A model generated the notes under the pieces. The model was not told the DNA's origin. It saw only the letters and a program-made list of their open reading frames with translations, and ran no database searches. 64,000 bases of DNA from positions 1,484,581 through 1,548,580 of the forward strand of contig NMRA01000027.1 in assembly GCA_002633005.1 (NCBI GenBank). Reading direction: 5' to 3'. This DNA comes from Phoronis australis (taxonomy: Eukaryota > Animalia > Phoronida). Position 1 is the first letter of the stretch; the number at the start of each line of letters is the position of its first letter. A program made the translations under genes and the position numbers. Positions 2,529 to 27,509 of this stretch are shown in pieces.

Positions 2529-5362
2529 AACAAGAGCAATGCAGAGCGTTGAAATGCGCCCACGAATGCATCACAAATTGTGTGCTTTTAGGGTTGTTTA
2601 TTTGTGTCCTAAAAATGGCCACTAGATGGCGCAAAAACGTACAATCCACCCAAAAACGGAAACCTGTCATTGCTTCTTTAATAGAAAGCTATACACCAAA
2701 TTTCTTAGAAATCCGTCACGGAATTTCAAAAAACAAAGGAAAAAAGAATAAAATGAAATTGCCACTAGGGGACAGACTGTTCATTGGATATGCCTGAAAG
2801 TCGTCATTGCCTGTTGTTAGCTTCATATCAATACACTTACTATCCTGCAGTGGGTTTAGGAGATACAGCTATGAGAGCAAAACAAAAAACAAAACTACCA
2901 CTAGGAGGTGCAACAGTAGTCAAAGTTGTCATCGTCAATTGTCCTCTTCACACTAAGAACATATACGCCAATTTTCAAAACCATAGCATGGTTTGGTTGA
3001 TAGAGGGGTCGACGCCAAAAAACAGAATAGAATAGAAAATAAGAACAAGAGCAACGCAGAGAGTTGAAATGCGCCCACAATTGCACCGCTTTTGGTATCC
3101 TTCTAGGGTTGTTTATTGGTACCATAAAGTGGCCAGTAGAGGGCATATATGTAGTATATTGTACTTTGCAAAATGGAAAGGCATGGTCATTGTCTCCTCA
3201 ATAGGCTAGGGGCAAAATGTGAGTGATCTTCATAATACAAGCACATCCTATACATCAGTTGCTTAAAGCACCACAGAAACATAGAATTAAAAACAAATTT
3301 ACCAACATACGAGATTAGCACAGCATTAGAATGCCAGAAACAAATTTCTACTTGGAACTTTTCCTTCATAGTCACAAAGTAACACAAAGTATACACCTGA
3401 AGACCTATGAAAATACAGAGGTCAATGTAAAATACTAAAATTGCCACTAGAGGCATACCGGTAGTCAGAATCATCCTAAAGTCGTCATCGTCCGTTGTCA
3501 ACATCACATAAATACACTTGCTAAATTTAGTAAAGATCCTGCAAACGGTTTGGGAAATATAGCCATGGGCGCAAAAAAAAACTGCCACTAGGATGCGCCA
3601 CAGTAATCAAAGTCACGGGAAATTCAGCGCCAACCGTCGTCTTCATAGTAAGAACATACATGCCAATTTTCACAATCATACTTATAGCGGTTTGGTTGAT
3701 AGAGGGGTGGACGCCGAAAAACAGACTCAAAAACAGTAAAAATGGCCACTGGGTGTCGCAAAATAGGTCGAATCTATCCGAAAACAGGATGATAGCGTCA
3801 TCGCACTAATAGGTGCCTACATACCAAATTTCATGAAAATCCGTTAAAGACTTGTGAAGATACAGAGGTAAACGTAAAAAAATAAAACTGCCACGAGGGG
3901 GCACACTGATAGGCGGATCCGTCCAAGTTGTCATCGTCTGTTGTTAACATCATATAAATACACTTATTAAATTTCGTAAAGATCCTGCGAACGGTTTAGG
4001 AGATACAGCCATAGGCGTAAAAAAAAAAAAAAAAAAATGCCACTAGGAGGCGCCACAGTAGTCCAAATCATCTGAAAATCATCGTCAACAGTCCTCTACA
4101 TAGTAAGCATATACATGCCAATTTTCACCATCATCCTTTGAGCGGTTTGGTTGATAGAGGGGTGGACGCACAAAAACAGACTCGAAAACACTAAAAATGG
4201 CCACCTGGTGGCGCAAACTATGTCGAATCCATCTGAAAATGGCAGGATAGCGTCATCTCACTAATAGGTGCCTACATACCAAATTTCATGAAAATCCGCT
4301 CAGGACTTTTGAAGATACAAAGGTAAGCGTAAAAAACTAAAATTGCCACTAGGGGGCACACCGGTAGTCGGATCCGTCCGAAAGTTCGCATATGCCGTCC
4401 CATTCATAAATGGAACATATGTGCTAAATTTCATGAACGTATGTCAAAGGGTTTTGGAGAAAAAGCAGCGGACGCCGGACGGACGCCGCCCGGACGGACG
4501 GACGGACAGATGGACGGAGATGACGGCATAATGCGTCCACATATAAATATGTGGGCACATAAAAATGGTCACTAGGTGGCGCAGAATACCTTGATTCCAT
4601 CCAAAAACGGGAGGATAGCATCAACTAACCAATAGATGCCCATATTTAAAATTTAATGAAAATCCGTTGAGGACCTTTGAAGATACAGATGTCAATGTAA
4701 AACTAAAATTGCCACCAGGGGGCACACCAGTAGTCAGATCTGTCCGAAAGTTGTCGTCGTCTGTTGTCATCATCATATAAATGTACTTACTAAATTTTAG
4801 TAAAGATCTTGCAATCAGTTTAGAAGATATAGCCATAGGCTCAAAAAACTGCCACTAGGAGGCACCACAGTAGTTGAAGTCGTCCGAAAATCATCGTCAA
4901 CCGTCCTCTTCATAGTAAGAACATACATGCCAATTTTCACAATCATGCTAAGGGCTGTCTGGTTGATAAAGGGGTGGACGCTAAAAAACAGACTCGAAAA
5001 CAGTAAAAATGGCCACTAGGTGGCGCAAACTATGTCAAATCCATCCGAAAATGGTCGGATGAAGTCGACTCACTAATAGATGCCTATATACCAATTTTTG
5101 TGAAAATATGTTGAGGACCTTTGAAGACACAGAGGTGAAAATAAAAAACTAAAATTGCCACTTGGGGGCACACCGGTAGTCGGATCTGTCCGAAAGTTTG
5201 CTCATGCCGTCCCATCCATGAAAGGAATACATGTGCAAAATTTCATGAACATACAATGTATGCAATCGGTTTTGGAGATAGAGCACCGGACGCCAGATGC
5301 ACGCCATCCGGACGGACGGAGATGGCGGCAAAATGAGTCCACATTATGTGGGCGCATAAAAA
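2529..5362 (-). mobile_element. HINE/DINE-1-like Helentron-associated element (outer copy) with a second copy nested inside
   Basis: Inverted sub-terminal repeats ATGCGCCCAC (2554-2563) and GTGGGCGCAT (5348-5357), short hairpin next to the AACAAGAG end, (GGAC)n microsatellite, internal ~150-bp satellite, A-run flanks (TT target on the minus strand). Confidence 0.8.
3044..4565 (-). mobile_element. Nested HINE copy inserted in the outer HINE
   Basis: Second AACAAGAGCAAC..GAAATGCGCCCAC end at 3044 and second palindromic end at 4530-4565. The outer subunit resumes in register after 4565 (AAAAATGGTCACTAGGTGGCGC). Confidence 0.75.
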
Positions 5363-6360
5363 TTGTGAAGTCCCAAGCTAAACGACCTAGACCTAAATTA
5401 GTGCTAAAAAGTGCAAAACCGACCAAAGTTGCATTATTGTAGTTTTGTAAGAAGGTGAGGCCTTATCTTCTCTTCAATTGGCAAGGGTTGATACCATCAA
5501 GCTAATAGGGGAAGTGCTCATAGGTTTTTCCAGCATGCATGAAGATGACTGCATCTTGACATTTAAATGAATCAATTGCTGCGGCGTTGGTGACCAGTCT
5601 CTTATTGTGGAAAGAAAGAAGGAATATTTGTAGATGTGAGGATTGTAATTTTGGCAGCTCCTGCGAGTTGTCCTAAGTAGTAGTATCTGATGATGAAATT
5701 GGAAAGCTGGCGTGTTGAATTATATAGAAGGTAGTGAGATGGCAAACTTTGCATCTGTTGGCCAAGGGATCCCAGCTTAGGGAACAAGGCATTTGGGTGT
5801 CACTAATCGTACTTCAAGTCTTGGTAAACAAAGCATTTATAATGCTTGTGATTCGATGTTTTTAAGAGTATCGATGACTTGATCTAGATCTTTAACTTCT
5901 TAATCAACCCTGATACTTAAAAAGAAGAACTAAAGCACATCAACAAAAAAATAAAAAATTACCTTTTTGTAGCTCTTACCAATTTCACTGAATGATATGC
6001 AACTGAATCAAAAGGTAAACAAACAAGTGAAGTCAACTGAACAAAATTACAAGCACATGGCTTTTCTGTTCCATTTGCGAACATAACTGTGACAATCAGT
6101 TTACTGACAGCTGCTGATGTATCACTGTATTTTAAATTGATCTTTTCATTCTCCCATTTCATTTACAGTAATAGCAGGGGACATTCTTCATCACACCTAT
6201 TACCAAACTAATGGTGGACTTACGTGCCAGTTTTCAAAAACAAAAAATCCAGACTTGGCTGCAAGTGCAATGTTTAACTGGTAAATTTTACAACAGTACG
6301 CAATGTTTTTTAGGATCCCTCCTATTGTTTCAAGTAGTCACTAAACTTCGAGCAGTTTCC

Positions 6361-9300
6361 TTAATTTGATTTTATTTTGCCATACGCAGCTGTGCCTAGA
6401 AGATGAACAGTGGTTTTATAAATATCAACAATTACACTACATGTACCTTGTGTTTTTTGAAAAACGTGTGTGCCTACTTCTTCCAGTGAGTCAGTGCAAG
6501 TTTCTAATCAGGGCTTGGAATGACCAATGACAAAAAAAGCGGAAACTTTTACGGCCCAAATTATGCGCGCTACCCAGCCTTGAAATGGTCGATGTGAACC
6601 TTTCCCCGACAAAAATCGGGAGGACTAAAAAAAAAAACGTTACCACCATCAGTAGCATGCGTCTGCGTCCTTTTAGCTCGTCCTTATCGTCCTTCCACTC
6701 CCAACCCACACATTTTTGGCTCCAGAGCCGTAGTATTTGTCGCCGCGGTTTGCAATAACACGAGACGCCATTGAAAATCCCACCACGCTTACCCAGATGC
6801 CCCAGCAATGTTGACAATTTACGTTCCTCCGAAACATAAAGAGCAACTTCCGATTTTTCGAGGTGAACGTCGTCGGCAACGCCGCGGTAAGAAAGGAATT
6901 TGCCGCGAAAATTTTATATCAAATCCGATTTTTTTACACGGAAATATTATAAAATGCGCGGAAAGAACATTTGAAAAAAGCGGAAATCGGCGTTTCCGCG
7001 GAAAATTCCAAGCCCTGCTAATCTCGTCGATACGCCAGCTTTAAAAAGGATAAAATACATAATGAGCTGTGTGGATCAAACACTGATTTCAGCAATGATC
7101 AAGTGATTGATTCACCTATTTTTGTCACCTGTACTGTAATTGATACAGGCATTCACACAGCAACACAATGATCTTCTCTACATATTTCTATCTGACTTGT
7201 ATAGTTTTTCAAAACAAATATATTGTAGGCGGTCCGATTCGCACCCATCACAGGCCATAAAATATGTTGCATGTTTTCTCCAATCGTGTCTTGTGAAAGA
7301 CAACCCACTCCAGATTGTATACATTTGTTCGAGCGAGTTCTGAGAATGCTTCCGCCATACCGTTTCTGCATCTCAGCTGGAGACAAAAAATTACCTCTGA
7401 ACATCTCAGCCCGACCCTGTGTTCATCAGCTTGGGATGTAGACCTACCTGCCGTTTCCTCAGATACTTGCTCAACTGGTTCCTGGTCGGGTACTTGCTCT
7501 GCTGGTTCCTGGTCCGGTACTTGCTCTGCTGGTTCTTCCTCAGGAACTTGCTCTGCTGGTTCTTGCTCCACCTCCGACATGGGCGGTACTGACACCCTAC
7601 ATGTATCTTGTTTGTCCACTCTAGTTAAAATATCACAATTCTCATTTTACTAATATAAAGTTGTTACATGGCAGAGCTGATGCAAAACTTGTTTTATAAA
7701 CCTTCTGGGAATGAATGGGATTTTAAAATTCACCGTAGCACAGCTTTGATGACTATTTGATGCCGATGATGACTGCTTGTGTAGTTTGCTGCTTGTGCTT
7801 ACGAACTGACAAATCAAACATCTTCACTGAGGAAAAGGCAGTATTGAAGTTTTGGTCATCAACTGGACTTCCCAATTTTGTCGAGCTAAATTTAAATCAC
7901 CATTAAATGGCAACGTTGCTGTAACCTTTTTCAGTTTTTCACATTGCAACACTGTGTAGAAACAGTAACTTCATTCCTCTTGATCTATTTGACGTTCAGC
8001 GACCAAAATATGAATTCTCTTTATTTTTGTTTACTTGGCGTGGAATACATTTTAGCAGTCTTATAATACTTACTGAAAGTTGACTCCAAAAACTTTACAT
8101 AGTTGTTCTTGAGACGAATAGTTGAACGATTATTTCTGCAATTGGAATTCTACCACATGAAGTTGCTTTATCTCGGTTCCATTTTTACCAAAACCTGTGC
8201 TGTGTGTGACCTCAAAGTTAGTAACAACCAGTTCTGTATTAGCACAAGCGCACATGAAAATACTCTTTGATTGCTTGATACTTCACAATAATTATTATTT
8301 CTACTTATTATTGTCACAAAAATGTGAAGTCAGCAAAGCTCAGTGTAATACAGATGCTCATAAAACACTGAGTGGTTGGCAAAATGGTTATGTCGAAATC
8401 TGTACATTAGCTTTCAGTAAATACAGTCAAACCTCATTACATTGTTTTCTTCCAAAAGACTCTAGCCAACTGAACTATGTGCAAATTGATTTGGTTACAG
8501 TGAACCTCTGTTACACCGTAGGTTTCAGAAGGGTCCCAACAGAGTTCGTTGTAACCAGGTTAGACTGTACAAATCAATTAGAAATGCAATACCTCTGAAC
8601 ATAGAACTTAAGTCCATGGCTTTGGTCGAACTCCAGTATTTCTCTTAGTGTCTTATTGCCATAGGTAGCTGGACGCTTTATCGTTAAACCAGGCATATTT
8701 GTTTGAATCTTTACACTTCCTTCGTCCAGTTTCTTATATGGCACTGCCTGGGGTTTGCCAACTGCTGAACCTATCAAGGTGTTCATGACATTAAACGAAT
8801 ATCAGGGTAATGTGTTTGCATCATTGTTGATTAATACACTTATCATGTTTATGAGGAATATACATCGTTGCAGCTTCAAAGCAGAATCAAAGGCCTAATT
8901 CCACACTCTTCACTGTCTGACAGTTTAATTAATGTACATACACTTTCCAATGCATCACTAAGTTAATTTGCATCATCAAAACTCATGCTTTATACTTTTA
9001 AAACCACTTCTTTCATAGTAATGATGCTAACTGGCTAAGAATAGACTGGAATTATTCCCCCTGGCTATGAGAGCTCTAGCAAGTGAGGAACAACAACCAG
9101 ACTGAGTTGACCTCAAACAGTGACTCAGATTTGATGCAAGCACAGGTCTAAACATACCGGATTAGACACAAGTAGTGAGAGTGAGATCTTTCTCAGGGAA
9201 TATGATCGCTATGTATAACAAAGCCACATTGTTTTCGGAAAATTCAGATTATGAGGTAGAAGACTGGGGAGTCTAGAGACCGATTCATAACAGTATCGCA

Positions 9301-12300
9301 AATGATATCAAGTTGACTGCATTTGAACAACATGCAATGCGATAACCACGTCAATGAACAGAGGCTTGTGCATACATATCGCCGGGTCACATGTGACAGA
9401 TTGCCTGTGCTTTTTCACAAAATTGTTAATTATAGTTTAATTGGAGTTTTTTACTGTCTGTAATGGAGCCGCAACTTTACTGAATAACCACAACTATACA
9501 TACACAATCAGCTTCAACAGATAAGTGATACTGTTTGTCTGATTCAAGTTTTGACTCAACAATAAAAAATGTAGAATGATAAATAAAGTACCGTATTCGC
9601 CCAAATAACCACCCATGCCCCTATAAGCGCCCCCCAGGTGTTTTCAGACTTCGCTAAAATAAGCGCCCAGCACATGAACGTGAGTACGTGCGAAAAATGC
9701 CTTACCTATACAATCCTAAAATTCTACAGTAACACCTTCAATTTATCAATAATATCCGACAGTCCTGAGAAAACGATTGTGTGCAGAATTTGTAGACAAC
9801 GAGCCTCGCCGCTATGTTTAACTTGGTATTTAGCCTTGACTATACACTTCATTCTGCCGTGCCTCAAAACGAACACAAAAAGTTTTGCTGATCTTGCGAG
9901 GAATGTGTCCCACTATGGTCTGACCTTTCAGAACAGACGTAGTGTACTTGTCAACCGGATTGTATTGTAGATATTTCCCGCTTTCAAAAGGAATCTAAAT
10001 TTCTTTGAACACGTGAAAACAGCTAATCGAAGTCTAAGCGCTACATACATGTACCTGTCATCAAAGACATTAGTCGGGAACTATCCATTCATCAAACAGA
10101 TAGCATAGCATGGGCAAGAAATGAATATTGGTACTAATTTCCAACAGTTTCTAATAACTATAAAAAATATTTGCATTATTTTTAAGAGGGGTTGTTTGAT
10201 TAATCATTTTGGTGTTTTTAAGCCAAATGTCCGATACAAGAGCAATGCAGAGCATTGAAATGCGCCCACGAAAGCATCGCAAATGCTGTGCTTTTAAGGG
10301 GGTTTTGTTTGTATCATCGAAATGGCCACTAGATGGCACAAAATACATCGAATCCGTCTGAAAACCAGAAAATGTCATGATTTCTTTAAAAGAAAACTAT
10401 TTACCAAATTTCATTCAAATTCGTCGAGGAACTTCAGAGAAACGGAGGAAAACGAAAAAAAATGAAACTGCCACTAGGGGGAGCAGTGTTTGTCAGATCC
10501 GTCTAAAAGTCGTCGTCTTATCTTGTTAACTTCATATAAATACACGTTCTAAATTTAATAAAGATCCTGCAGAGGGCTTAGGAGATACAGGTATGGGTGC
10601 AAAAAAAAAACAAAGCCACCACTAGGAGGCGCCACAATACTCGAAGTCATCGGAAAATCATCATCAACTGCCCCCTTCATAGAAAGAACATACATGCCAA
10701 CTTTCACAATCATCCTTAGAGTGGTTTGGTTGGCAGAGGGACGGACACCAAAAAACAGACTTGAAAACAACAAAAATGACCACTGGGTGGCGCAAACTAC
10801 GAATACATCCGAAAACGAGAAGATAGCTTCATCTCACTTAATAGATGTCTATGTGCCAAATTTTATGGAAATCCGTTGAGGACCTTTGAAGATACTGAGG
10901 TAAATGTAACAAACTAAAACTGCCACTAGGGGGCACACCGGTACACCGATCTGTTTGAAAGTCGTCGTCGTCTGTTGTCAATTTCACTTAAATATATTAG
11001 CTAAATTTAATAAAGATCCTGTGGAACATTTAGGAGATACAGCCATGGGCACAAAAACAAACAAAACTGCCACTAGGAGGTGCCACTGTATTTGAAATCG
11101 TCGGAAAATCATCGTCGCCTGTCTTTCTCATAGTAAGAAGTAAACATACATGCCAATTTTCACAATCATCCTTTGAGCGGCTTGGTTGATAGAGGGGTGG
11201 ACTCGTAAAAATGGCCACTAGGTGGCGCCAACTACGTCAAATCCATCTGAAAAGGAAAGGATAGCGCCATCTCACTAATAGGTGCCTATATACCAAAATT
11301 TAGGAAAATCCGTTCAAAACTTTTTAAGATACAGAGGTAAACGTAACGAACTAAAATTGCCAATAGAGGGCACACCAGTAGTCAGATCCGTCTGAAAGTT
11401 CGCTCATGCCGTCCTATCCATGGAAGGAACAAATGTACAAAATTTCATGAACATACGTCAAGGCGTTTTGGAGATAGAGCAACAGATGCCGGACGGACGC
11501 CGGACGGACGCCGGACGGACACCGGAAGGATGCGGTACGGACGGAGATGACGGCCTAAATCATTAATGCGTCCACATATAAATATGTGGGTGCATAAAAA
11601 GAAAAGACGAAAACCTGTGGCTCAATTACCCCAACTGTTAGCATGGAAAAATGAAAGTCAAAAATAACATATCTTCAAACTATAGAATGCATCAATCACA
11701 ATCCTAAGTTGGCCAAACTTTTCAGTTTCAAACAGTAATTACAGGAGTTAATTGTTCATAAGCCACACTGGTGTAGAAGAAACTATGTGACAAGAAATAA
11801 CTACCAGGACTCTGAAAATAGGCTGGCAGAATTTGTAAGCAATGGCTAAGAGCAATCAGATCATTCAGAATCTGTCATGTGGCCTCTTCTCTCGAACTGC
11901 AAAACTTGAGTCACAAAATAGAACACAAAAAATGACAAAATAAATTGAAACACATAAAAGGCAATTTAAAACAAATTTGCAGTAACAAAAATAGCACTTT
12001 GTATCCTATTTCGGCGGCACGTAGAAAATCGCACTCAGGCGGTCAGGCCTAGCACTAGCAGCAAATGGCAACAGGCGTGCATGCGGGATCAAACAAAGGA
12101 ATTTCATACATCACTCACATCCCACGATTCCAATCTCATGAATAACCGGTTACGGTTGAATTTCCTTTCATCGTTTTCAGTCGGTCCTCCGACTCCAACT
12201 TAGTCTCTCTCAAAGTTTACAGAGCACAAACCTTGGTTTGTTTAGACACTGGCCGTTTGTTTTATCCACATTCCCCACGAAATATTCAGTCTAATCTACG

Positions 12301-15300
12301 CTCCACGCATTTTTGACCACAGAATCGCACTATTTGTCATCGCGATTTCATACCAAATGCAGACGCCTTTGATGAACCACACTATCCTAGGCACAGGCAC
12401 TTGAATTTATCTGTTCCTCGATTGCCACTGACGTTACTCACTACTAAGTTTCTTATATATGGTTACGAGTCATAGGGAAATTCGAGCGCCTGTGATTCAC
12501 AATTACAATTTTTGTTCCTACGCCGTCGTGAGAAACCAATTTACCATGATAATTTCATGGCAAATCCGATTTTTCCACAGAAATATAACAAAAATACGCA
12601 GATCGAATAAGAAAAAAAGCAGAAATCCGCGTTTCCGCGGACAATTCCAAGCCTTGAATTTAGCAGTAAAGTTTGATAGCAATACACCACGATTTTGTAG
12701 AAAACTCTTTCATAGGTTACGGATACGGCATAGAGCATAAATATGATGAATCTTAGCTTTCGATTGCACCTGTTTCGGAGACCAGGTTTCAACTGACTTG
12801 GGTTACAAGCGCCTCCCCTGAAACAAATTTTTCTAAGCGCCCTGGGCAGTTATTAAGGCGAATACGGTAAACAAAAAACAAAACATATACTCACTGTACA
12901 AGGTTTTGAAAATAGTTCGAATGACCCGGGAATTAGACTGCTTTGGAGGTACAACAGACATTCCTGCAAAGAAAAATAACCATCACTCAAACAGGGCTAT
13001 ACTTGGCCAGTCGCCAATGTGAGTGAAAGTGCTTCTGGGCAAGTAGAAATTGTCTTTCCGGTTGCCCAGGTGGCGAGCGAATTTTCAAAGCTCAAAAGCA
13101 CTCTATCGTTTCCCAGATGAACATGAATAAATTTTCTCCTCCTTGTGCTGTTTTCATCATGAAAACAAAGGTTCAGTTTGGTCAGCGTGACGATTCTCCG
13201 GCAGTAAAAAACATCGGCGCTCCTACCAATTCAGTAGACTGTCACCCCTTACGCGATTTGTCTAGACAAGAGATCACAGTGGTTGGTCGTGCACAAAGGA
13301 ATTTCTGGACTAGTCCGAATTGAAGAAAAAGGGGGGGAAGGCGGAGGACCGGTCCATGTGCTAACAGCAAGTGAAATTGGGAATCTAAAAACAGGGGCTG
13401 GGCGGTTAAAATCAAAATTTTTGAAAAGTCTTGAGTTGTTCCGTACCGCACGGAAGACCGAATTTACCCTCACAGATCTACACTGACGTTGGACTTCAAG
13501 CATATCAGTTAAAAGATAGGTTAATTGGGGATTGAAGTAATGGACTTCCGATGGCCTGTAGTACACGATACAGTGACGTCGTGATCCCGAGCGTGATTGG
13601 GTTTTTACATACCTCGGTGGCTGTTCGTCATTTCTTGGAACTAAGGTATTCATACAGGTAGGCGTGCATTCAGAAGGGTAAGTCCCTTGAGAGAAAAGAC
13701 AGATCAAGCAAGATACCGCTAGTTTGTAGCGTATTTTTAAGGGAAGCACCTTATTTTGTAAAGATTTGCTTTGCTGGACACCTAGGCAACCAAACATGTG
13801 CTAATGATTGACCAATTTCAAACTGAATACTTTGAACTTAGTTTGAACAATGCAACATTTTATATACATTGTATAATTTTTTGGTTCAAAGAGAAAACCC
13901 GCGCTTGTTCAAAGCACGTGCTCAACAATCAGACGATATTACTATTATGCATAGGGGTGCTCTGTCAGCTGCCAAAATAATGAAGAAAACACACATCATG
14001 TAAAGTCACCAGGCAAATCAAAAGTTCAAAAAGTAAGTTTTTGACCACGTGGATGTGAACAGAATGTTTGACTTGCGCTTAATGACAAATTCATTGCTTT
14101 TGGTTGGTCGCTTCCATTTTGGTGTCAGGAGTCCGGAAGAGTGCAGTTTTTAATAAAACAACTTTTGTATCAGATTTTATCTGGTCAGTCTTTTACCCAC
14201 ATCGGCGCCGTAGCTGTAGCCTATTACTACATTGCAGCTTTGCGCCAAGGCAACGTCTTGTGTTGCTGGGAATTCATCGACGTCAGAAGTTTGTTGGTAG
14301 GAATTTATTTTCCAAAAACAATACTAGCCCTAATAGATGGCGACATCAACACACGAAACAATGATTTTGATTGACATTGGCAGCCAGTGACGCAAACGGC
14401 TGAGCGACTGAGTTTCGGGCTGGGCGAGTAGATTTTCTGGCTCACTCGCCCAGCTGGCGAGCGGGGTTTTGAAACCTAGGTATATCCCTGTCAAATAGTT
14501 CACGATTTCTTGGAATTTCAACACTTTTGGCAGATAAATACAAACAGAAAAAATAGTGATTATGTTTTATTTCCATTCATTCAAAATAAGGAATTTGTCA
14601 TGAAAGATACTATGCAAGTGAAGTTTTGTCGCCCTAGTGCAAGTTTGAGCACTATTTAGAATGGCAATGAAAATATATTCATTAGCGAGAATAACAGATT
14701 TGTATTAATTAATTAAAAAGTTAACATAACATGTAGATAAACATTTGGCTTTTCTAATATTGTAATAATTATATAAGAAGAGTAATTTAAAAGCCTTCTA
14801 TTCAAATAATCATTTGAAAACTATGTTATGGGGTAGATTAATGAGAAAAGACCTACCTTGTGAACAATGTTCACGAAACCTAGACGACAAATCATCCGAT
14901 TTGAAATGTTTCAGTGTTTGAGATGTTCCAAAGTATTCGACTGTATTAGTATTACTGTCAAACGACAAGCCACCAATCTCAATCCCTTGTAACTTAAGCT
15001 GCTCAACCTGTAAAAAATATCCAGTTCACCATAATAATTCAAGCGAGACCCTCATTATATGTGCTTATGGTAGAGCAGCTAGATTTAACTAGCATTTTAG
15101 GCCCGCGCTTTTTATTGCAATAACTTCCCGTGAAACAAAGCGAAATCACTGTAAGGGCATACCTGCTAATTTCATTCAAATATTTATCTCGAGGAGGAAA
15201 ACACAGAAACATTTGAAGGATTACTAGAAGGTCTGGGAGGATTAATGAGCGTCATAGTAGAAGGTCTGGGAGGATTAATGAGTGTCATTAACAGTAATTT

Positions 15301-18300
15301 ATGGAAACTGTGGAAAAAGCAATATTTTGAAAAAAAAACAGAACAAAATCACAAAAATCATAACAATTGGCAGGTACTCCCTCATACAACAGTGATTTCC
15401 TAATACTTATATTTTCAATTGCCTTTCAAGGCTTCCAGTAAAAATTAGAGTTTATCAAGGCCTAGATTAAAGTCAAGGACTTTTCAAGACCCAGCCTCAA
15501 ATTCGAGAGCTTTTCAAGTTTGTGCGAAACCACGTGTGTTCCTCTTTAGTTTCAATCCCTTACTTTGAATGCATCAGCAGTGCACGCCCTCTAAACAGCT
15601 GGGCCTCACAGTTATCGTTATTAGTATGCAATAATATCAAGTAGACAAAGTTCACTTCTTTGATTTACAAACAAATGATCACACTAATTGTTTCAACATA
15701 ATTTACTAGTCAAAGAATACTAATTAAAATGTTTACATTGTTTCATATCAATGAGGCTTCATAAAGATAAAATATAAAAAACAAAGGTCTTTGCTTTAAT
15801 ACTTAATCAAATATTTGAGCCTGAGGAATTGGCTTTGTTAGATGTGGGACTCAATAGCTAAGGGTCAGTATAGCGTCCGACTACAGTTCAGGAAACCACA
15901 TGCCCGATTCCACACCAAGATGTCATTGCTTCTATATTTCATTTATAAGTTGTGTTAGACATAGAAATGACTTTTGTCTTGAGTAAAGTGCAGTGGGAAA
16001 GCTGGAACTGTCCTTTGCCAACTTAATTGTGTTGGAATGCACAGGACAGGTGTACTACCGGCCTTTCGGACTATCGACCCATACCCATACCTTTTTACTG
16101 GATACAAGGCTAGTTGTGAAATAAACATTATTTATGGTTACACATGTACCATAACAAGAAATAATGACTTACACAGTTTGAAAAAAGTTTCAATAGCTTT
16201 GCCTTTTTTCTCCGTTTGACATCTTCCCCTTCATCCACCATTGTCGCCCTTTCTCTATACTGCTGTCTCTCTCCCTCCGTCAACTTTTTCCATTCACTAG
16301 CCCATGAATTAAACTCCCCACCTACAGGTTGTTAAAAAGGACATGTCAATAATAGTTACATACACTATTACAATTTTTTGTGAGAATCTGTTGAATTTTA
16401 ATTTTTTTTAAAAAACAAATACCCAAGAATGGCCTAATTTTCTAAGTCTGCAAATATTTTTGATTGTGAAACTCAACTTTAATTCAAAAGATCACATTAG
16501 AATTAAACGTAACCTTAATGTCCTATGTAATAGAATTGTGGCAATCTACGTACCCTTTTCCCTACAAAACTGATTATAAGCACTCCGGCCTTTCACATAC
16601 AACACCTTCTTTCTGTCGTACGTTTTTCCCTGGACTTTCTTTCTATAATTGCTAATCCAGTTCTGTAAGCATAGAATATATTATACGTTATAATATCTAC
16701 ATGTATGCAACAGCGGACTGTTGAGTCTGAGCTATGCAGTAGGAAACTGTACCTTACACGACTATAGCTATAACTAAAGTTCGATTTTGCACTTCGATGT
16801 GGCAAATAAAAAGACCTATGGGCAATCTGGTGAAAACGACAAGTTTTGGTATGACAGAATAACAAAGAAAACAATTTGCCTCACACAAAACAGCTAGAAT
16901 CGACTGGAAATTTAACTTCATTCCTAGCCGTCATGACCTAGATTCCTTATAATGTGCACGACATGCTGGGTGGATGGCAACAGAGCAGTTGGCTACTTGC
17001 AGTGTTTTGGCTTGTATGAAGTTGGCTTAATGGTAACAACATCCAAGCTTGTCCTTGGTTGTCTTCATACTGTCCTGTCAGGAGAGTTTGTTACCAGTTG
17101 CGTAGGGCCAGAACCCTTAGGTGGTCCTGGTACAGGCTTGTCACTGAAATTCGGTTTAATGTAGCTTCGCAGAGCGATTGAAGTCAGCTCAGTCCCTGTC
17201 TGACCTAGTGCATCTGTCTGTCAGAATAGATGACAAGAGTCTCACCATTTTGTTAGGTTGACCTATATTGGAGAGCTTGTATCTCATGTCATCATGCCGA
17301 ACAGAGTCAAAAGCTAACAATATGGGGCACGTAATCTTGCCCTCTTCATGCATGTCTCAAAAATGTACACTGAACTGGTGTGACCAATACTTTTTGTACT
17401 TCTAAATGTGCTTTCAGACCAGAGTTTCACGGTAATAAGTCCTCCAAAGCATTCATGACAGGCTCAGAACAGCAAACAAAAAGTCACACAAGTTAATTCC
17501 TTTAATAATACTACACCCAATTCTATAATATCAATTCTATTTCTATCTATACGTATTACTAGTAACATGTTGTGTTAGTCTGGTGTGACCTAATACTTAG
17601 TGACACCGGTTGTCCTGTTGAATAAGCTGATAAGTTCAAATTTGCCACCAGATGTCGGTCAAAATCAAATTGTTCCAATATAGGTTTAGATGCAAAATTT
17701 TAAGGTCAGAATGACAAAGGAGATCGAATTAGTCCATGCTAAAAGAAGACAGTTGACTCTATGAAGTTTTGTTGTGGAAAGAGTTTTCGTCGGATTTTCT
17801 TAACAATAGATGATACTCCTTTAACGTAAAGTTGGAAGTATTTATTGTTAACTGCCCAACAGTTAAGTAAGATCAGGCTCTGCTTTGATGCTGCGAGCTG
17901 AAGTGCTTTAATTGCCACCCTGATTTAAACCTGGCACAGCAATTTTTAAACTTAACATGTGCCTTGGCGACAAAATCCAAACTTGTAACTGTGACGAGTC
18001 AACAGGTCGTGGAGAACACGAGGAGGATTTCAGGCCAGAAAATTGTCCCATTGAGACGTGTGAGGTCATAGGTTCAGTTTCAGTCTTTATTTTTTAGTAT
18101 CAATGATTGTGTCGGCTTTTTTCTTGAAAAAACGCAGATGAGAGAATAAAAATATGATACGTTTTATGACTATCAATAAACAAACCTTCACTCTCTTCAC
18201 ACTGCAGCCCAGAGACACAGCAACTTGCGCCACCTGCGGGGAGTTCTCCCTCGTCATACCCTGTTCCCATGCTGCCTTCAGTATACTACACTCATCATCA

Positions 18301-19991
18301 CTGAAGAAGAGCTGTAACGATGGAAAGTGAAATTAGTAATTAATATTCTGCACCCCAGGTTTATTGCTCTCTAGAGGTCTTGGATTAAAAATAAACGATC
18401 AACAATGTATGTTCAATTACAACCAGATGAAGCATAAATGCTGCATTCAATCGTTTGTTTGAATTGGGCACTGGCAGCTTGAGTATGGTAGGTTTTAGCA
18501 ACTGGCAAAGATCAATGATCAATTACCTTTTACAGTAAGAGATTATAAATGCATGAGCATTTTAGAGCAAACTTTGTAAGAAAAAATATTTAGCACTTCT
18601 ATTCACGACAGAATCAAATGCAATCAGCAGACACCTGCACAAGGATTGACTTCCCTCAACTCAATATGGTTATGAAGTGTCGACGATCGCGATAACAGTA
18701 AAAAAGTCAATAAAACCAACAACCATCAGATTGAACTGAACTCATAGAAAGTGACCAGGGAGTGTGAAGACAAGCCAAAAATGGACACCTGCACTCATTG
18801 ACACACAACAACCTTGGTTATTTTTTCAAAAACGGAAAAATGAAAATCAGAAGTTTGCTCTAACCTTTGTTTTGCCATAGAATGTGGAATCCATTGCTTA
18901 ATCCCAAGTCTATTGAACAGACTCAACTGTAGAGAGCAGCAAGTTTAAGGGTTGAGATATCAACTATCCCTGGGCAACACCGATGGGTTTTTAAATTTTG
19001 TATTGATTTTTCCAGCAGCAAAGCAGATTGCAGGCCACGTAACATAAACATAATACAGTCGGCTACAATGCAGAACTGCCAAGACGTGAAACCAAGCTAG
19101 ATTGTCAGAAACCAAGAGATGTATGGATTTTTCAGTCACAAAAAGCCAAGGGAAACCCATAATTAAAGTAAAAAAACAGGTGTCATGGCCAAACCGAAAG
19201 ACTTCGCAGTTGGCAGCAATGGGGCATATGCCGATTGGCAGCACAGATAATTGCAATTTATAATTTGAAAATAGTACTCCACAAAGTATAATTTCAACTG
19301 ATCGAGTCACATGAGTTAGGCAAAGGTTTAGAGCACGAGACTGAGTGAAGCGCTTGAGGCTGGCACGTGACACTTGCAAAATAGCACGGCAAGGTATCAG
19401 GTGAAATTTATAAGATTTGTGTCCCTTAGACTTTTTTTTCATCAACATGCATGATTTCACGTAACTTTCTCAAAATGGCACCGGATAAGAGAAACTTGAG
19501 CAAACCGCGACAAATATTCATCGATTTGTTCAAATTATCTTGACGGAATCGTCTCCAAACATATGTGCTTGTGGTCTACGGCTTATAGGCAAACCTATGT
19601 ACAAACCTGACCAGTTTCATGCAGTGCTCAAATTACAAACAGAACAGAAATTCACACAGTCATAAACAATACAAGACTGAAAACAGGTTAAGTCAGAAGC
19701 CTAATGAATCCAAAGATCAGAAATCGCGAAAATGTCGCGACGAGTTATGCAGTAATTTTGTCACTTGTTGTTGTGATAGTCTTGGATCTAGACAAATGGC
19801 AAAAATTGAAAAAGGACAATGATCAAAAGTTATACTTGGAATACAAAGAAAATATGTTTTTGCGCTGAAATCTTCACAAAGAGCCCATTTGGTTATGCTG
19901 CTTTTAAAAACATCAACAGAAATTAATGTAGAATAAAGATACGCAAAATTTGACTCACCCTTTTCCTTGCATCGGACTCTGAGGCTGACAT
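6361..19991 (-). CDS. Multi-exon gene encoding a putative nuclear DNA-binding protein (~340 aa): HDX-like homeodomain + HMG-box-like + GTF2I N-terminal-like + GTF2I repeat + acidic repeat
   Basis: Exons (minus): 19991-19959, 18311-18186, 16662-16554, 16321-16173, 15007-14857, 12963-12895, 8770-8593, 7620-7448, 6395-6361 (last one tentative). All introns are GT-AG with compatible phases; total 1023 nt, no internal stop. Protein: MSASESDARKRLFFSDDECSILKAAWEQGMTRENSPQVAQVAVSLGCSVKRVKNWISNYRKKVQGKTYDRKKVLYVKGRSAYNQFCREKGGEFNSWASEWKKLTEGERQQYRERATMVDEGEDVKRRKKAKLLKLFSNCVEQLKLQGIEIGGLSFDSNTNTVEYFGTSQTLKHFKSDDLSSRFREHCSQGMSVVPPKQSNSRVIRTIFKTLYSSAVGKPQAVPYKKLDEGSVKIQTNMPGLTIKRPATYGNKTLREILEFDQSHGLKFYVQRVDKQDTCRVSVPPMSEVEQEPAEQVPEEEPAEQVPDQEPAEQVPDQEPVEQVSEETAGTAAYGKIKSN*. 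Confidence 0.82.
6509..7017. mobile_element. Non-autonomous DNA transposon, CAGGG termini, 5-bp TSD (hAT5-like)
   Basis: TIR CAGGGCTTGGAAT / ATTCCAAGCCCTG, flanked on both sides by CTAAT. A degenerate relative lies at about 12150-12656. Confidence 0.75.
7448..7620 (-). CDS. Exon 8: acidic low-complexity tail with a 27-bp coding repeat
   Basis: ttaactag|A..GCAG|gtaggt, 173 nt; (EQVPDQEPA)-type unit about 4 times. Confidence 0.65.
8424..8567. mobile_element. Small pogo/Tigger-like MITE
   Basis: TA|CAGTCAAACCT ... AGGTTAGACTG|TA. Confidence 0.55.
8593..8770 (-). CDS. Exon 7: body of the GTF2I repeat
   Basis: ccttgatag|GT..CAGAG|gtattg, 178 nt; SAVGKPQAVPYKKL..PGLTIKRPATYGNKTLREILE..LKFYVQR. 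Confidence 0.8.
9591..12867. mobile_element. Tc1/pogo-like non-autonomous element hosting nested insertions
   Basis: TA|CCGTATTCGCC ... GGCGAATACGG|TA. Contains a HINE (10236-11600) and a CAGGG-family relic (about 12150-12656). An inverted relative lies at about 38475-39823. Confidence 0.72.
10236..11600 (-). mobile_element. Complete HINE/DINE-1-like element
   Basis: ACAAGAG + hairpin CAATGC-AGA-GCATTG + ATGCGCCCAC; 8 satellite subunits; (GCCGGACGGAC)n; terminal palindrome and A-run. Confidence 0.8.
12895..12963 (-). CDS. Exon 6: first helix of the GTF2I repeat
   Basis: tttctttgcag|GA..TACA|gtgagt, 69 nt; ..RVIRTIFKTLY. Confidence 0.8.
12992..14490. mobile_element. Non-autonomous DNA transposon, CAGGG termini, 5-bp TSD (hAT5-like)
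   Basis: CAGGGCTATAC ... GTATATCCCTG, flanked on both sides by TCAAA; sub-terminal GGCGAG repeats. Confidence 0.72.
14857..15007 (-). CDS. Exon 5: GTF2I N-terminal-like region
   Basis: ttttttacag|GTT..CAAG|gtaggt, 151 nt, open frame VEQLKLQGIEIGGLSF..YFGT..FREHC. Confidence 0.85.
15225..15288 (+). repeat. 33-bp tandem duplication
   Basis: TAGAAGGTCTGGGAGGATTAATGAG(C/T)GTCAT occurs twice. Confidence 0.9.
15846..16091 (+). mobile_element. Putative degenerate tRNA-derived SINE
   Basis: tRNA-like head (TAGCTAAGGGTCAGTATAGCG..CCCGATTCC) and a short (ATACCC)n tail. Confidence 0.4.
16173..16321 (-). CDS. Exon 4: HMG-like helices 2-3 and a basic NLS-like stretch
   Basis: cctgtag|GT..TGT|gtaagt, 149 nt; WASEWKKLTEGERQQYRERA, KRRKK. 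Confidence 0.85.
16554..16662 (-). CDS. Exon 3: homeodomain helix 3 and HMG-like helix 1
   Basis: cttacag|AAC..AAGG|gtacgt, 109 nt; NWISNYRKK..GRSAYNQFCREK. Confidence 0.85.
18186..18311 (-). CDS. Exon 2: homeodomain helices 1-2 and start of helix 3
   Basis: ttacag|CTC..GTGAAG|gtttgt, 126 nt; LFFSDDECSILKAAWEQGMT..LGCSVKRVK. Confidence 0.85.
19959..19991 (-). CDS. Exon 1 (coding part) of the homeodomain-HMG-GTF2I gene
   Basis: acaaaATG start, MSASESDARKR, donor AGG|gtgagt, phase 0; RKR forms the homeodomain N-terminal arm. Confidence 0.75.
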
Positions 19992-20999
19992 TTTGTAAAT
20001 TCGGCGCCAGCAGACTAGAGCGACGTCTTTCGTGAAAATGGCAAATTACATATTGACGTTAGTCTCGAAGCTGAATACAGAAAATTGTGGCAACGAGAGT
20101 GTAAATATCGATTTGGTCCTGGGCCGCACTGTAACACGAATGCAGGACACGTTGAGGAGTACCTTTTACTGAGTATAATATATTTTAGTGATATTTTACA
20201 GCGAGTTGCAAGCATGTGTAACGGCTTAGTGCGTTCCAGACTCTTGAACAGAGTTACGGTGTTGGACGGGCGCGCCGTCTATTGATGGAGTACTGAGTTT
20301 AAACTTTTCCGATTCGTGAGTCAAGTCTATGTTTGTTTCCACAAAAGACTAGAGAAAGGGGGTGTGTATTGGTGGATCCCTTATCTGGTACTTCCGACGA
20401 CGAAATTTTCCCGGCTTTGCATTTGGACTAGTTTTCACATTTAACTTAACTGAGACCCCAACTTCAGCTATTGGTACATTCGCGGTCGCGGCGGCCATGC
20501 CAGGTCGCCCGTATAAAAATAGGCTCCACACGCTCGAATCTGCCGGCCGGGTCTTGTTCCTACCCGCATGAAATCTCAGATCTAACTAACTATAGCTTTT
20601 TGGGCCAGGCGAAATTTAATGTTTTTCGGTGTAGTTTTCTTGTATAGCAGGCATGCATTGAGTTATTTTAACAAAGCAAAAATGCCGACGAATAGTTAAT
20701 GGTGAGCTGTGCGGAGTTAGTAGATTTGTATTATATATTTTTAGCACATAATAAACTCAGTTGTTTCACTCTGTATTATAGTTGTCACCATATTTCTCTC
20801 GTATGTCATGCAAACGAGTGAAAAAAGTACACAATGCTGCAATTTCTATCGGCTACGAACAGTCGACTTCTTAAGTATAGATTGGTTGGTGCTGCTTTAT
20901 GGTCGCTCCACCGACTTCCGTTACACTCAAGCTTCGAGGGCGCTAACACCAAACAGAAGTTAGAACAGCGATATGCTCAAAATAATTATAGAGAATAAA

Positions 21000-22560
21000 T
21001 ATCAGTTGTAATATGTTTTTGGTGCATTCGCTTTCTAATTTGATTGATGGTATGCCTGAAGTGTCAATTGAATCAGACCATAAACCTTTAGAAAGTTTGT
21101 TTAAAAAGCCAATAGGCAAGTCTCCGAACGGATGCTGAAATTTCAACATACTCGTTTAATTTTAAGGTGGTGTCAAAAAGGTAATACATTAATTGGTTTA
21201 GCTGATTGTTTGCGGAGATTACCTCACAATGGTGATGACAATTATAATATAATCATGGATGATGAGTTAATGGTTTGTAAGGTTGATACTCCAGCACAGT
21301 GTATGCATAATAAAATTGCTATGACAACATGGGATCGCGATCATGAACTGCAGTGTGTAGAGTAGTTGAATGGTTGGCCAGAACATAGGTCCAAAGTATC
21401 TCAAATCGCATTTCCTTATTGGGATTACAGAGATCAATTGGCTATTGTTTTCAGACCAGATGAGCGTATGTATTCCCTCTACAATCCGTTAGCATAGGTG
21501 TACTACACTAATGGAGGAGGACACGGAAAAAACAAAGAGTTCGATCGCGGTGATAGTACACATTTTGGCCGGGTATATATGAAGAAACAAATTGAACACT
21601 ATGATTAGCAGATGTGCTGCATGTTTGAAACATCGAAATTTCCAGCCAAAAAGGGGAATAGAGTTTGAGAAACCTGTTCTCCCGTGGAACACAGTTGGAT
21701 GTGATTTCATTGTTTGAATATGGAAACAAGCACTCGTGTTGATGCTAGATAATTATTCCTTGAAGTATCACCGTTACTGACATTCCACGAATGCCTCTAC
21801 GGTGATTAAGCAAGTCATAGCTAATATTGCACGTTATGGTATTATGGACAAATTAGTGTCAGAAGATGGTCCTCAGTTTCCTTGTCTAGAATTCAGAGAA
21901 TTTGCCTGACTGAGGAAAACTATGGCGTTATCCGCATAACATCATCTCCGGGTCACCAGTAGACAAATGGTCTTGCAGAGAAATCTGCTCAAGCAATTGA
22001 TAAAGAAAACAAGTGAAACAAATTGTGATATGCATTGTATATTTGGCTTTCAGGAGATGGCATTATTGGGTCTCCAGTTCAAACACTAACGGGTAGACGT
22101 ACCAGGACATTTATTGCCTACTTCGAATGCACTGCTAAAACCCGAAGCAATTAATACTGGCTCCCGTTCAGTAACGCTAGGACCTCACTACAAAGCAACA
22201 CTTCGCGAGATCACGCGAGATATTGTCATGTATTTGAAACGAGAACACGTGACTTTGGCTAAATTTCCACAAGGTCCTAGCCTTACTGAACGCACGCCTG
22301 ATGAAGCGCATTCACAACTATCCACGTATCAATGGAGACATAAGAAGTATTACTACAGAAATACTAAACCATTGCCAGCATTAAAGAATTTTGATTCTGG
22401 ACGAGCTGTGTGTTTGAAAACTAAAAGTGGTTGGGAACCAGCAGAAATGATGAAACAACATTCTGATTCATCTTACATATTGTCAAATCAGGTGACGAAG
22501 AACGAGAGTATCCGCGTAATCGACAAATGTTACTGTCCACTACAGAATCTCCACATTCTT
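21000..22560 (+). mobile_element. Degenerate Ty3/Gypsy LTR retrotransposon pol (RNase H-integrase) relic
   Basis: Frame-disrupted motifs ESDHKPLESLFKKP, LADCLRR, GWPE..PYWDYRDQL, FWPGI, CAAC, PWNTVGCD, RYGIMDKLVSEDGPQF, TSSPGHQ*TNGLAEK, SPVQTLTGRRTRT. Confidence 0.85.
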
Positions 22561-23519
22561 TACAGCTTAATTTGCTCAGTTCAGTTAAGCATGAAATCAA
22601 GCAAACAGACAACAATCTTATTCAACAAACAAGTGGCACTGGTACTGATTCACCCCACAGAATAAATCAAAACCTGTGGTTGCAAGGTCAGTTCATTATT
22701 GCAGGAGACCCAAGTTAAGCTCTAAAACCCTTATGGTTGCCAATACAAGTAGGTAGGGCTCGAAACCGAATGCTAGATAAAGCACTAACCTGGCACATTG
22801 CATTGGCCATTTTTGCTTTTAGCGCAAGAATAACGGAATGATGCAATAATTAAAGTCACTTTTTTCTAATTCTAGATATCATTTCGTATCGAAAGGCACA
22901 AGACCACTTTTATATCTGACAGCAAGAAATCAAAGGTTACTTTACCATTGCAAACTGAGAAAACTTATCTACAAATAACAGAAAGCTAACTTAAAAACAA
23001 AACAAGGTCATCTGCATTCATAGCTTCTACATGTAATTATCCTTCATGCAAAAGAATCGCCGCCAAGATTATAAGCAAAACACCGATTTGCAGTTTGACA
23101 ATAAAGACAGCAAAAGCGGACACTTGTAACCTTGTTGTCAAAACTGACCTCTCAGAAATCAGATCACTTTGGGCTTGTCGACCAGTGGACATAAAGAGGA
23201 ACCAGAGTTCCTTTTATTCAGAATACCTTTATTGAAATGCTAACATTTCATCAATTGAAACCAAACATTGCATAAACAAACAGAACAATTATCTGCGTAT
23301 GCCTTTTGAAATAACAATGTTCACAACTGAAATCATGCCTTCTTGAATTACTAAGATTTAGCAACCATTAAAAATAGTTTAAAACACCTTGAAATGTTGC
23401 ACGCAAAAATGTCCATTGCAAGAACAATGTAAAAATTCAGATAAAATATAAAACTTTCAACTGACCACAATTAATAAACACCGAGGTTCAGCAATGTTCA
23501 AGTGAAGAACATCCTTATG

Positions 23520-23679
23520 TCAAATAAACACATAAAAATCAGGAGCCCCAACCGGGAATCGAACCACAGGTCTCTAGATTGCCGGTCTATTGCTCTTACC
23601 ACTGAGCACAAAACCGGCAATCTAGAGACCTGTGGTTAGATTCCCAGTTGGGGCTCCTGATTTTTATGTGTTTATTTGA
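23520..23679. repeat. 67-bp-arm inverted repeat built from a tRNA-like sequence
   Basis: Arms 23520-23586 and 23613-23679 differ at 2 positions, with a 26-nt loop. The minus strand reads GCTCAGTGGTAAGAGC..GGTTCGATTCCC (A-box/B-box-like). Confidence 0.85.
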
Positions 23680-24826
23680 TATATTTCTCAACTGGCCAAC
23701 CTCAGCGTTTACATATTAACATCCTTATGGCATGCCTCAATGTGGAAAAGGATATTGTTGCAATAACGAGATCACCATCAGCATGCTGCACACATATAAA
23801 TACTGGACCACGGCCCAAGTGGTAAATCACAAAGTGACCAATGATAGAATGTAAACTGTAACAATTATGAGAATAGAGACAATGGACAGCAATTGATATT
23901 GGATGAAATGACACATTACAGAAATAACCCAAATACAAATGCTGCCGACAGATGGTGATTAATACAACCAAAATTACATACAGAGATCCACTGTCTACAA
24001 ACACAATGCCAGTGTCAGCTCTGTCACTTAAAGTGGGACTTGCAGTCTAATTCATTGTCTCAGTGATTGCTTGGTCAAATTGGTTGTGATACGTTTTAAA
24101 TTGCCAAATGTTTTTAAAAGCGAGTTTTGTGTCGAAAATTATCTGCCGTAAGTCACTGAACCACAAGAAGTAAATATCGTGGCATGATGTTGGGGAATAG
24201 CACTGCATGATGCGGGCTATGTGAACCCCCAAGGTAAGTCATTTATGCAAAAGTCACCTATCAGAATTATTAGTTTTCACATTAAAAGTTGTCAGTGAAT
24301 GTAACTGCACTTTGTTCAGCGTAGATAATGTTCACATACATAGCATTGTTTAGTTCCAGCGATACACTAGCATACATGTAGTTAGGAGCCTACATCTTCA
24401 AGGCGGTTTGACATAGTTTTAATTTATCATTGAATTTTTATAAATTCATATTTTGTATTTTTGTCTTTGCTAACTACAAATCTAAAATGCGGGGGTCACC
24501 TTCTGAAACAGCTCTCAAAGCAGCAGCACCAGGTCCTGGATAAATATGAAATTTTCATGGATTACTGAAAAGACACTGCCGAATAAATTGACGGACATCT
24601 TTTTGAGAACAAATTAATTTTCTTCTACAATGCTGTTTTGTATTTTAAAGTTAATTTAAGTACATTTTCTGGTTCAATAATTTTCTTTAGTCAGCATATT
24701 TTCGTGATTTTCAGTACCTAAAATTTTAGCATTATGTCTTCTACACAAAGAATAATAAATGTGTGTTTTGTTGATGCAAAACATATTTTTTGAAATAAGA
24801 AAACAAATTACGAGGGGGTGGGGCTG

Positions 24827-26197: not shown

Positions 26198-27509
26198 GAC
26201 GACACCTAAAAACACACACAGAGACTTCAACTGTAATATGCCTGAAAAATGAACTTGAAACTTTAAAGGAAAAATACAGCCTTTTTATGTTGCTCTTACT
26301 AAACTTTTGTGTGTCTTTCAGACATTTTAGCATAATTACCTTAATTTCCCCAGGTATATAATTAAGTAGCCCCCAGTCATCAACATTGACAAATTATCTG
26401 CAATACGTAGAAAAACTTGTAATATGGTCGAGACCAACATAACTTGACAAACTCCTGCAGCCTCTACCGGTGACGCAATTAAATAAGCTCGAGCGAAATT
26501 AGTTCTCAATGCTGCGACAGCTCCAGACAAAATAAAACTACAAGCATTATTGATATTAGGTTGATATCCAGTTTTCATCAAATTTCTGTAACTCGGCAGG
26601 TTTTGGCAGTCGGAATGCATTGTCTCCCAGTTCATGATAAACATATGCGAATGATGCCTTTGTGGTTAAAGCTATTGAATTGGTCTGTTTACATGCATGT
26701 TAAGCAGACAGCTGCAGTTGAGGTAGCCACAAATATTGACTTTAGAATCAGTTTCAATGGACTTTGTACATGTACAAGGTTTTTGAAGTTTTTAACCAGG
26801 CAAGTATTCTATTCGTATTTTCAGGTTTTGTACCTCCTTTTGGAACTACTAAGGCCTGATTCTTCAGCAAAAACTTGAATGTCACTTTAGATGTACAAGT
26901 TTAGCGACACGAAAAAAAGTACAGAAAAGGAAATTGTGAGCATCGACCTGGTTGAAGAAAAGAGAAAAATGGCAACTTGAAAGTGATCGCTAGTGTAGAA
27001 TTTCTATACTCCTCCAAACAAAACTCTAATGGACAGAACGATAAGTCGACCAAAACTTTACTATATTTTGGTTTCCAATCGAAGGGCTTGTCAATTGATC
27101 AAATGGCAATTTTCATTTGCTTTAAATAATTAAATTTAAAAAGTGATCAATTAATTATAAAAATAACTGGTTGTTAATGATCATCTAGACTAGCATGCCA
27201 TTTGTTATTGTTGAGAAACAGATTGTCATTCAAGGGTTGGCTTCAACTCGCAATGACAAGGACCAGGGACAGTATTCTGAGTTTTCCTTAGGTCAAGATT
27301 TTTCTTTAATTGTGACTTTTTCTTTATCTAGTTTTTTCTCAAAATTTTCCTTGTCTTCACGAGATTTTCCTTAACTGTTTTCTTATAACTTTAAGTCAGT
27401 CTTAAGTTAAATGAAATTATTGCCTTTTAAAAAACAACATGGTGTTTATTATCACCAAAGAAAAAAAATTGCCATACAATGTTATGTTACCAAGTGATGC
27501 AGAATTCGT

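Follow-up and report, generated by a model that had tools for sequence, protein, structure and literature searches.

A stretch of 64,000 nucleotides from Phoronis australis (contig NMRA01000027.1, positions 1,484,581 to 1,548,580; hereafter the window), animal-type DNA with a GC content of about 39%, contains a real, spliced and weakly transcribed gene on its minus strand. The predicted protein combines an HDX-like homeodomain, an HMG-like unit, a putative dimer domain and a single GTF2I I-repeat, and this combination is a family and not a one-off. The reading we favor, with some reservation, is that the gene encodes a homodimeric DNA-binding protein whose family arose from a helper gene of KDZ (Kyakuja-Dileera-Zisupton) transposons and shares an ancestor with vertebrate TFII-I. 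The TFII-I factors are central in Williams-Beuren syndrome and we know of no established origin for them. Our results suggest that this supposedly vertebrate-only family, called vertebrate-specific in PMC9900109, is older than thought. A transcribed gene of an invertebrate that places a dimer-type domain ahead of a single I-repeat, as vertebrates do and seemingly with a matching intron frame, is a candidate for its ancestral form. A literature search, with most subscription papers lying outside it, turned up no description of an I-repeat protein from an invertebrate, of a MADS-like TFII-I domain or of a protein joining homeodomain, HMG box and I-repeat, in agreement with the preliminary description of the locus, which had called the combination undescribed.

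Gene structure and transcription

The preliminary description had proposed nine minus-strand exons with GT-AG boundaries that chain into a frame of 340 amino acids, and the positions, splice sites and frame were all reproduced (8/8 introns GT-AG; intron phases 0,0,1,0,1,1,2,1; 340 codons up to the stop). Exon 1 (19959..19991) carries the ATG and aa 1-11, which supply the basic arm at the N-terminus of the homeodomain; exon 2 (18186..18311; aa 12-53) encodes homeodomain helices 1-2 and the start of helix 3, and exon 3 (16554..16662; aa 54-89) the end of the recognition helix, with W48, N51 and R53, followed by the first HMG-like helix. The remainder of the HMG-like unit and the first half of a long dimer-type helix lie on exon 4 (16173..16321; aa 90-139), and the end of that helix, a beta-hairpin and a further helix of a predicted MADS/NRF1-like dimer domain on exon 5 (14857..15007; aa 140-189). 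Exon 6 (12895..12963; aa 190-212) encodes a linker and the first helix of the I-repeat, exon 7 (8593..8770; aa 213-272) the core of the repeat, and exon 8 (7448..7620; aa 273-329) an acidic linker of low complexity; a 27-nt tandem repeat lies in this exon. If exon 8 is left unspliced, its frame is open as far as a stop at 7248. The proposed exon 9 (6361..6395) consists of 11 codons and a stop, is in frame with GT-AG boundaries and has an AATAAA nearby. Chaining of this kind is weak proof: for the last exon alone a filter script found 21 phase-compatible acceptors 3' of exon 8, so that exons could be chained by chance, and independent support was therefore sought.

Part of this support comes from RNA (three raw-read runs and one contig set, all under the same species label). 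When reads were mapped at 95% likeness over 12870-20060, a region that covers introns 1-5, and joints were listed from 3 reads upwards, two joints appeared, both as predicted. Intron 1 (1647 nt) was spanned by 4 reads with 3 different starts in one run and intron 4 (1165 nt) by 3 reads with 3 starts in a second run, the first mates lying on the plus strand in both cases, as for minus-strand RNA. Two of the five introns tested well thus have RNA support on the correct strand; introns 2, 3 and 5 fell below the 3-read bar in this mapping, where depth was 0-4 per bin. In a wider, repeat-dominated mapping at 90%, which included introns 6-8, the gene's joints were absent among the 15 joints listed of 191. 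Depth over exons is in keeping with the model, in that exon 3 has RNA depth in two of three runs (its joints being absent from a listing that needs at least 3 reads), the exon 5 bin has strand-specific depth in all three raw-read runs and is flanked by empty intronic bins, and exon 6 has reads in all three, with a variant at 12937. Expression is very low, amounting in the best run to about 950 bases over exon 5 in 1,640 million letters. Equal numbers of bases mapped to exons 3-5 at 90% and at 95% likeness, and hence no expressed close paralogue was seen for these exons. Of three RNA variants within exons, two change an amino acid and thus offer no indication of purifying selection. Just 5' of the ATG, 20013-20040 matches two high-depth 31-letter contigs, so that the 5' leader may contain a repeat fragment.

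The 3' end of the gene is less settled. Minus-strand depth was 0.3-3.1 in the exon 8 bin (7484-8004), with the joint to exon 7 absent from the listed joints, zero in all three runs in the bin holding exon 9 (5921-6441) and 0.15, 0.77 and 0 across the three runs in the bin 5400-5920; on this pattern the proposed exon 9 is probably wrong. The last of these bins contains an alternative terminal exon candidate (5837..5898, minus strand; 20 codons including the carried-over base) that has RNA depth in two of three runs and a weak acceptor that failed the acceptor filter.

Further support comes from Capitella teleta. The protein ELU15512.1 (CAPTEDRAFT_228636, 506 aa) is collinear with aa 14-262 of the window protein (22% identity, E 7e-14), that is, exons 2-7 are collinear with a single Capitella protein. 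With the I-repeat left out (aa 9-189), the alignment scored 84 against 34+/-5 for shuffled sequences, and 0/500 shuffles scored as high. Since ELU15512 matches in one piece and beats 500 of 500 shuffles even without the I-repeat, the domain combination is a family. Intron edges, which we read from breaks in mis-spliced database models, provide indirect evidence that is independent of alignment scores. Breaks in the Capitella models coincide in the alignment with window introns 2, 3, 4 and 6. In vertebrate models there are four such places: within the dimer helix, behind the dimer domain, behind the first helix of the repeat and where the repeat ends. The breaks in the dimer helix, behind the first repeat helix and at the end of the repeat share columns with window introns 4, 6 and 7; the one behind the dimer domain is two residues away from intron 5. 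It is thus very improbable that the exons come from two genes or form a chance chain in which the I-repeat alone is meaningful. That introns 2, 3, 5, 6, 7 and 8 are without shown reads, that the homeodomain has no Pfam match and that the HMG unit scores below its cut-off would all fit such a chain, but a single Capitella protein carries this set of units, identically ordered, and its exon edges match. The hidden spliced gene of the preliminary description is accordingly real, by RNA over introns 1 and 4 and by Capitella collinearity over exons 2-7, while its last exon is unsupported by RNA.

Units of the predicted protein

Exon 7 encodes a genuine GTF2I repeat. Alone it matches Pfam PF02946 at 29.4 bits (E 1e-6) against a cut-off of 27, and its stop-to-stop frame reaches 34.2 bits, which upholds the earlier assignment; a tblastn search of the window with the gene model found no second I-repeat. 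A full scan of 1.84 billion representative proteins returned 15 matches. The best was a Capitella teleta protein with three I-repeats. Eleven others carry I-repeats only and are of the vertebrate GTF2I/GTF2IRD1 type (6 of them named as such); 3 were rejected as summed-repeat artefacts, being unrelated repeat proteins with no GTF2I domain. Searching longer proteins by words of exon 7 gave no match, and a metagenome scan gave 472 pattern matches with 0 confirmed. When exons 6 and 7 were compared with individual repeats, the best pairwise score (105) was to the first repeat of a GTF2IRD1-type protein and the next was 96; the repeats had been collected by a regular expression (24 in 6 proteins) that missed some, so that numbering after the first repeat may be shifted. 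In a repeat tree both invertebrate repeats sat unplaced on long branches. I-repeats of the TFII-I family bind DNA sequence-specifically with an RGATTR core (PMC3438194). The misannotation of hAT elements as GTF2IRD2, the topic of PMC10641963, is distinct from the present gene. Two side observations concern the spread of the repeat. In Capitella ELT88798 the I-repeat core exon occurs in three tandem, near-identical copies, an independent multiplication as in vertebrates. The top Atlas feature match of exon 7 scored 0.80, no more than a lead, and is a eukaryote cluster of 79 members. Of these, 11% have PF02946, and the commonest phylum, known for 4 members, is Mucoromycota, a hint of fungal I-repeats.

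The resemblance to the TFII-I family (GTF2I, GTF2IRD1, GTF2IRD2; PF02946) may extend beyond the I-repeat itself to a putative N-terminal dimerisation region that lies directly before the first repeat, in the same relative place and apparently with the same intron edges. The window protein differs in having one repeat in place of several and in the homeodomain and HMG-like unit added in front. The region before the repeat, at about aa 124-189, corresponds to a predicted fourth structured unit that the preliminary description had missed and that lines up with the TFII-I 'leucine zipper' region. Support for this unit comes from structures predicted for its counterparts, and its likeness to the vertebrate region is not significant by sequence: an HMM search gave no match, hhalign against the vertebrate domain produced a collinear alignment of 56 columns whose score was equalled by 19 of 150 shuffles, and the window segment against the Capitella dimer segment alone was equalled by 27 and 31 of 500 shuffles. 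In GTF2IRD1 the leucine zipper region mediates dimerisation (PMC3493543).

Structural models, which for this unit and for the homeodomain were made from Capitella or vertebrate sequences and not from the window protein, point to a MADS/NRF1-like fold. The vertebrate N-terminal region (eight sequences) was predicted to fold as helix-strand-strand-helix-helix with a pLDDT of 83.8, the other four models having 53-63. A VIA search with this domain against 48,161 chains returned SRF first (Z 6.3, rmsd 3.9, 70 aligned), NRF1 second (Z 6.2, rmsd 3.1, 70 aligned) and then MEF2A (Z 4.8) and MEF2D (Z 4.6), the scores of about 6 for SRF and NRF1 falling below the caution line of Z = 8. The first Foldseek row was again NRF1, with E 0.6, and no row reached E<=0.001. 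When Capitella residues 1-78 were modelled as two copies, the pair scored 0.59 against 0.01 for the best control, on a scale whose homodimer threshold 17 of 29 eukaryote homodimers and 0 of 30 single chains attained; contacts agreed at 93% or more between runs and pLDDT was at least 76. In this predicted dimer the strands run antiparallel over residues 33-41, centred on 37:37. The Capitella counterpart is therefore predicted to homodimerise, although its score may come from the model's memory of MADS and NRF1 structures. There is precedent for such an arrangement in NRF1, whose MADS-like dimer domain is joined by a flexible linker to a separate DNA-reading domain and has the antiparallel strand geometry seen in SRF (PMC10810270). 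The predicted fold of the TFII-I 'leucine zipper' and the Capitella dimer geometry thus resemble the NRF1 dimerisation domain and the MADS box of SRF and MEF2, whereas identity in the structural alignments is 7-10%, a likeness of fold only that does not imply membership.

The homeodomain, which the preliminary description had assigned to the divergent HDX type, is supported as HDX-like by profile and model. Exon 2 alone gave no Pfam homeodomain match, and a PDB sequence search with it returned one designed repeat protein, which was rejected. With a profile of the Capitella N-terminus and exons 2 and 3, by contrast with exon 2 alone, 18 of 18 PDB matches were homeodomains, the best (E 0.005) being 2da4, which we take to be HDX. 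The window segment against its Capitella homologue was equalled by 0 of 500 shuffles. An AlphaFold model of the Capitella homologue had three helices (block pLDDT 74-83); with it, 37 of the 39 Foldseek rows shown were natural homeodomains, all with E above 0.001, and homeodomains also occupied the first 31 VIA rows (best Z 6.5). The top Atlas structural row was a highly divergent homeobox cluster, and an Atlas feature search with the Capitella homeodomain gave no usable match. The basic arm and W48, N51 and R53 (standard homeodomain numbering) are kept in the window translation, with one extra residue between F8 and W48. These results point to a divergent homeobox family missed by Pfam. HDX (highly divergent homeobox) is the best match of the homeodomain both in sequence and in Atlas structure, a likeness that carries no claim of orthology; to our knowledge it has no I-repeat. 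One homeobox is seen in the window model, unlike HDX, which carries several (PMC6118893).

The case for an HMG box is weaker, and the unit is better called HMG-like, from a likeness at the level of motif. Exon 4, which encodes half of it, matched Pfam HMG_box at E 0.065 and 14.1 bits, below the cut-off of 25.4; a PDB sequence search with exon 4 gave no match, the Capitella proteins had no HMG profile match at E<=1, and this region of the Capitella model had a pLDDT below 55. Among the three folds proposed earlier, Pfam thus recovers GTF2I above its cut-off, HMG_box below it and the homeodomain not at all.

Origin of the gene

Homologues in other species are pertinent to where this gene came from. 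Protein-database searches, of limited sensitivity, found no invertebrate homologues outside Capitella, so that a full-length homologue was found in one other invertebrate species in all. Capitella has six models, each on a contig of a different length, whose local identity to ELU15512 is 63-97% (gaps counted), and five of the six are broken or fused to unrelated sequence. ELU15512 and its five broken sisters share the window protein's order of units over aa 14-262 and then have a tandem-repeat linker; they differ in being multi-copy and unannotated and in an HMG-like spacing about 10 residues longer. The Capitella protein also has an extra C-terminal domain, with a weak Tudor-like Pfam match (E 0.11) in a sister model, for which no counterpart was found in the window. 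In one of the six gene models, as read from protein models, KDZ CxC1 (36.3 bits, cut-off 26.9) and CxC2 stand directly before the family's first exon. We infer that this multi-copy, KDZ-linked pattern is what a gene borne on a transposon typically shows. Extra genes, TET/JBP among them, are known from KDZ elements (PMC12730594); the paper contains 0 mentions of GTF2I or homeo-. The Capitella model fused to CxC1/CxC2 resembles such accessory genes; the window copy differs from KDZ-linked genes in that no transposase, element ends or duplicated target site were found with it. The preliminary description had proposed an undescribed transcription or chromatin factor with three DNA-binding folds. 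It was right as to undescribed, I-repeat and homeodomain; the HMG fold is weak, and the full-length Capitella homologue with its multi-copy, KDZ-linked pattern, which the description had missed, suggests a transposon helper in place of a plain new host factor.

It is unlikely, though the strongest of the alternatives, that the gene is an old and ordinary host transcription factor, an invertebrate pro-orthologue of GTF2I/GTF2IRD1, whose Capitella copies were captured and spread by a transposon later. Several observations at the window locus agree with such a history: (i) no transposase family was found among 229 window ORFs; (ii) no element-like long terminal inverted repeat pair surrounds the gene among the 25 pairs listed of 173; (iii) the absence of extra reads between 95% and 90% on exons 3-5 argues against expressed close paralogues; (iv) intron edges are common with vertebrates and (v) the gene lies among C2H2 zinc-finger genes. 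The 229 ORFs comprise 137 of at least 54 aa between 2.4 and 24.8 kb and 92 of 98 of at least 62 aa between 26.3 and 59.8 kb (6 overlying a zinc-finger gene were excluded). KDZ, CxC1 and CxC2 were not found in them at E<=0.01, a scan that short exons could escape, and the Capitella CxC part had no tblastn match in the window. However, an old single-copy factor would be expected in many invertebrate proteomes and was found, at limited sensitivity, only in Capitella, and identity between the window and Capitella proteins is only 22%. Missing terminal inverted repeats (TIRs) at the window gene also say little, because Kyakuja elements are without TIRs (PMC12730594).

Still less probable is that the window gene is a copy inside, or a decaying remnant of, a non-autonomous transposon, with background transcription and no host role. 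The very low expression, the uncertain 3' end, the Capitella C-terminal domain with no counterpart found and the TE-rich surroundings are what such a remnant would show. Against this, the frame is intact and the splice sites canonical across at least 8 exons spanning 12.5 kb, even though repeats have inserted into the introns, splicing was accurate in two independent runs, and the homeodomain keeps W48, N51 and R53.

Returning to the helper-gene origin that we favor, a plausible scenario starts from a gene that is transcribed and spliced. Two chains would pair through the helix-hairpin-helix domain, with first strands antiparallel, as predicted for the Capitella counterpart. By analogy with NRF1, the dimer would bring a pair of I-repeats and a pair of homeodomains to the DNA, with minor-groove contact or bending contributed by the HMG-like unit. 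Within a transposon, such a protein would label the ends of the element for the transposase or regulate its promoter. The window copy is likely to have been stranded and kept by the host as a regulator, our reasoning being that no transposase was found nearby, that the introns are long and filled with repeats and that the frame is intact through at least exon 7. DNA binding, a transposon origin and domestication of the window protein are all inferred. On the same scheme vertebrate GTF2I and GTF2IRD1 would be this design minus the homeodomain and HMG units, with the I-repeat multiplied.

A broader version of this scenario, which we put forward tentatively and rate somewhat below an even chance, is that TFII-I, GTF2IRD1 and GTF2IRD2 all descend from a KDZ helper with the order homeodomain, HMG, MADS/NRF1-like domain and I-repeat, that their 'leucine zipper' is of MADS type, that the window gene is an independently tamed four-part copy and that HDX may be a second offshoot. 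The 'leucine zipper' would thereby be recast as a MADS/NRF1-like fold, and a transposon origin becomes testable.

Genomic surroundings

C2H2 zinc-finger paralogues flank the locus at 943-2425, 24827-26284, 35337-36737 and 50401-50784, all on the minus strand. In two of these genes a single long frame contains 12 matched zinc-finger stretches, and both share a distinctive acidic region at the N-terminus. The copy near 1-2.4 kb is split; for the frame at 50.4 kb the resemblance is confined to the N-terminal part. Some 1 kb upstream of the gene start, at approximately 21000-22700 on the plus strand, lies a decayed Gypsy-like LTR retrotransposon pol, which we take to be such from RNase H/integrase-like motifs recognised by eye (a 191-aa frame there has no Pfam match). 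A cysteine-rich minus-strand frame at 41125-41475 has a weak TCR/CXC match (E 0.0016) and presumably resembles the C-terminus of a DNA-transposon protein.

Repeats of other kinds are also present. At 29543-30444 and 56540-56784 there is a MITE-like 276-bp inverted repeat pair (98.6% identity) with a second imperfect palindrome, and at 23516-23683 a SINE-like hairpin with 80-nt arms, 93% complementary, around an 8-nt loop, the arms looking tRNA-derived by eye. A run of N at about 59866-60794 marks an assembly gap or a mask. Heavily transcribed interspersed repeats with internal units of about 400 nt occupy 1-570, 2530-5366 and 10236-11600, the last within intron 6, and RNA depth over this family is 126-254 per bin.
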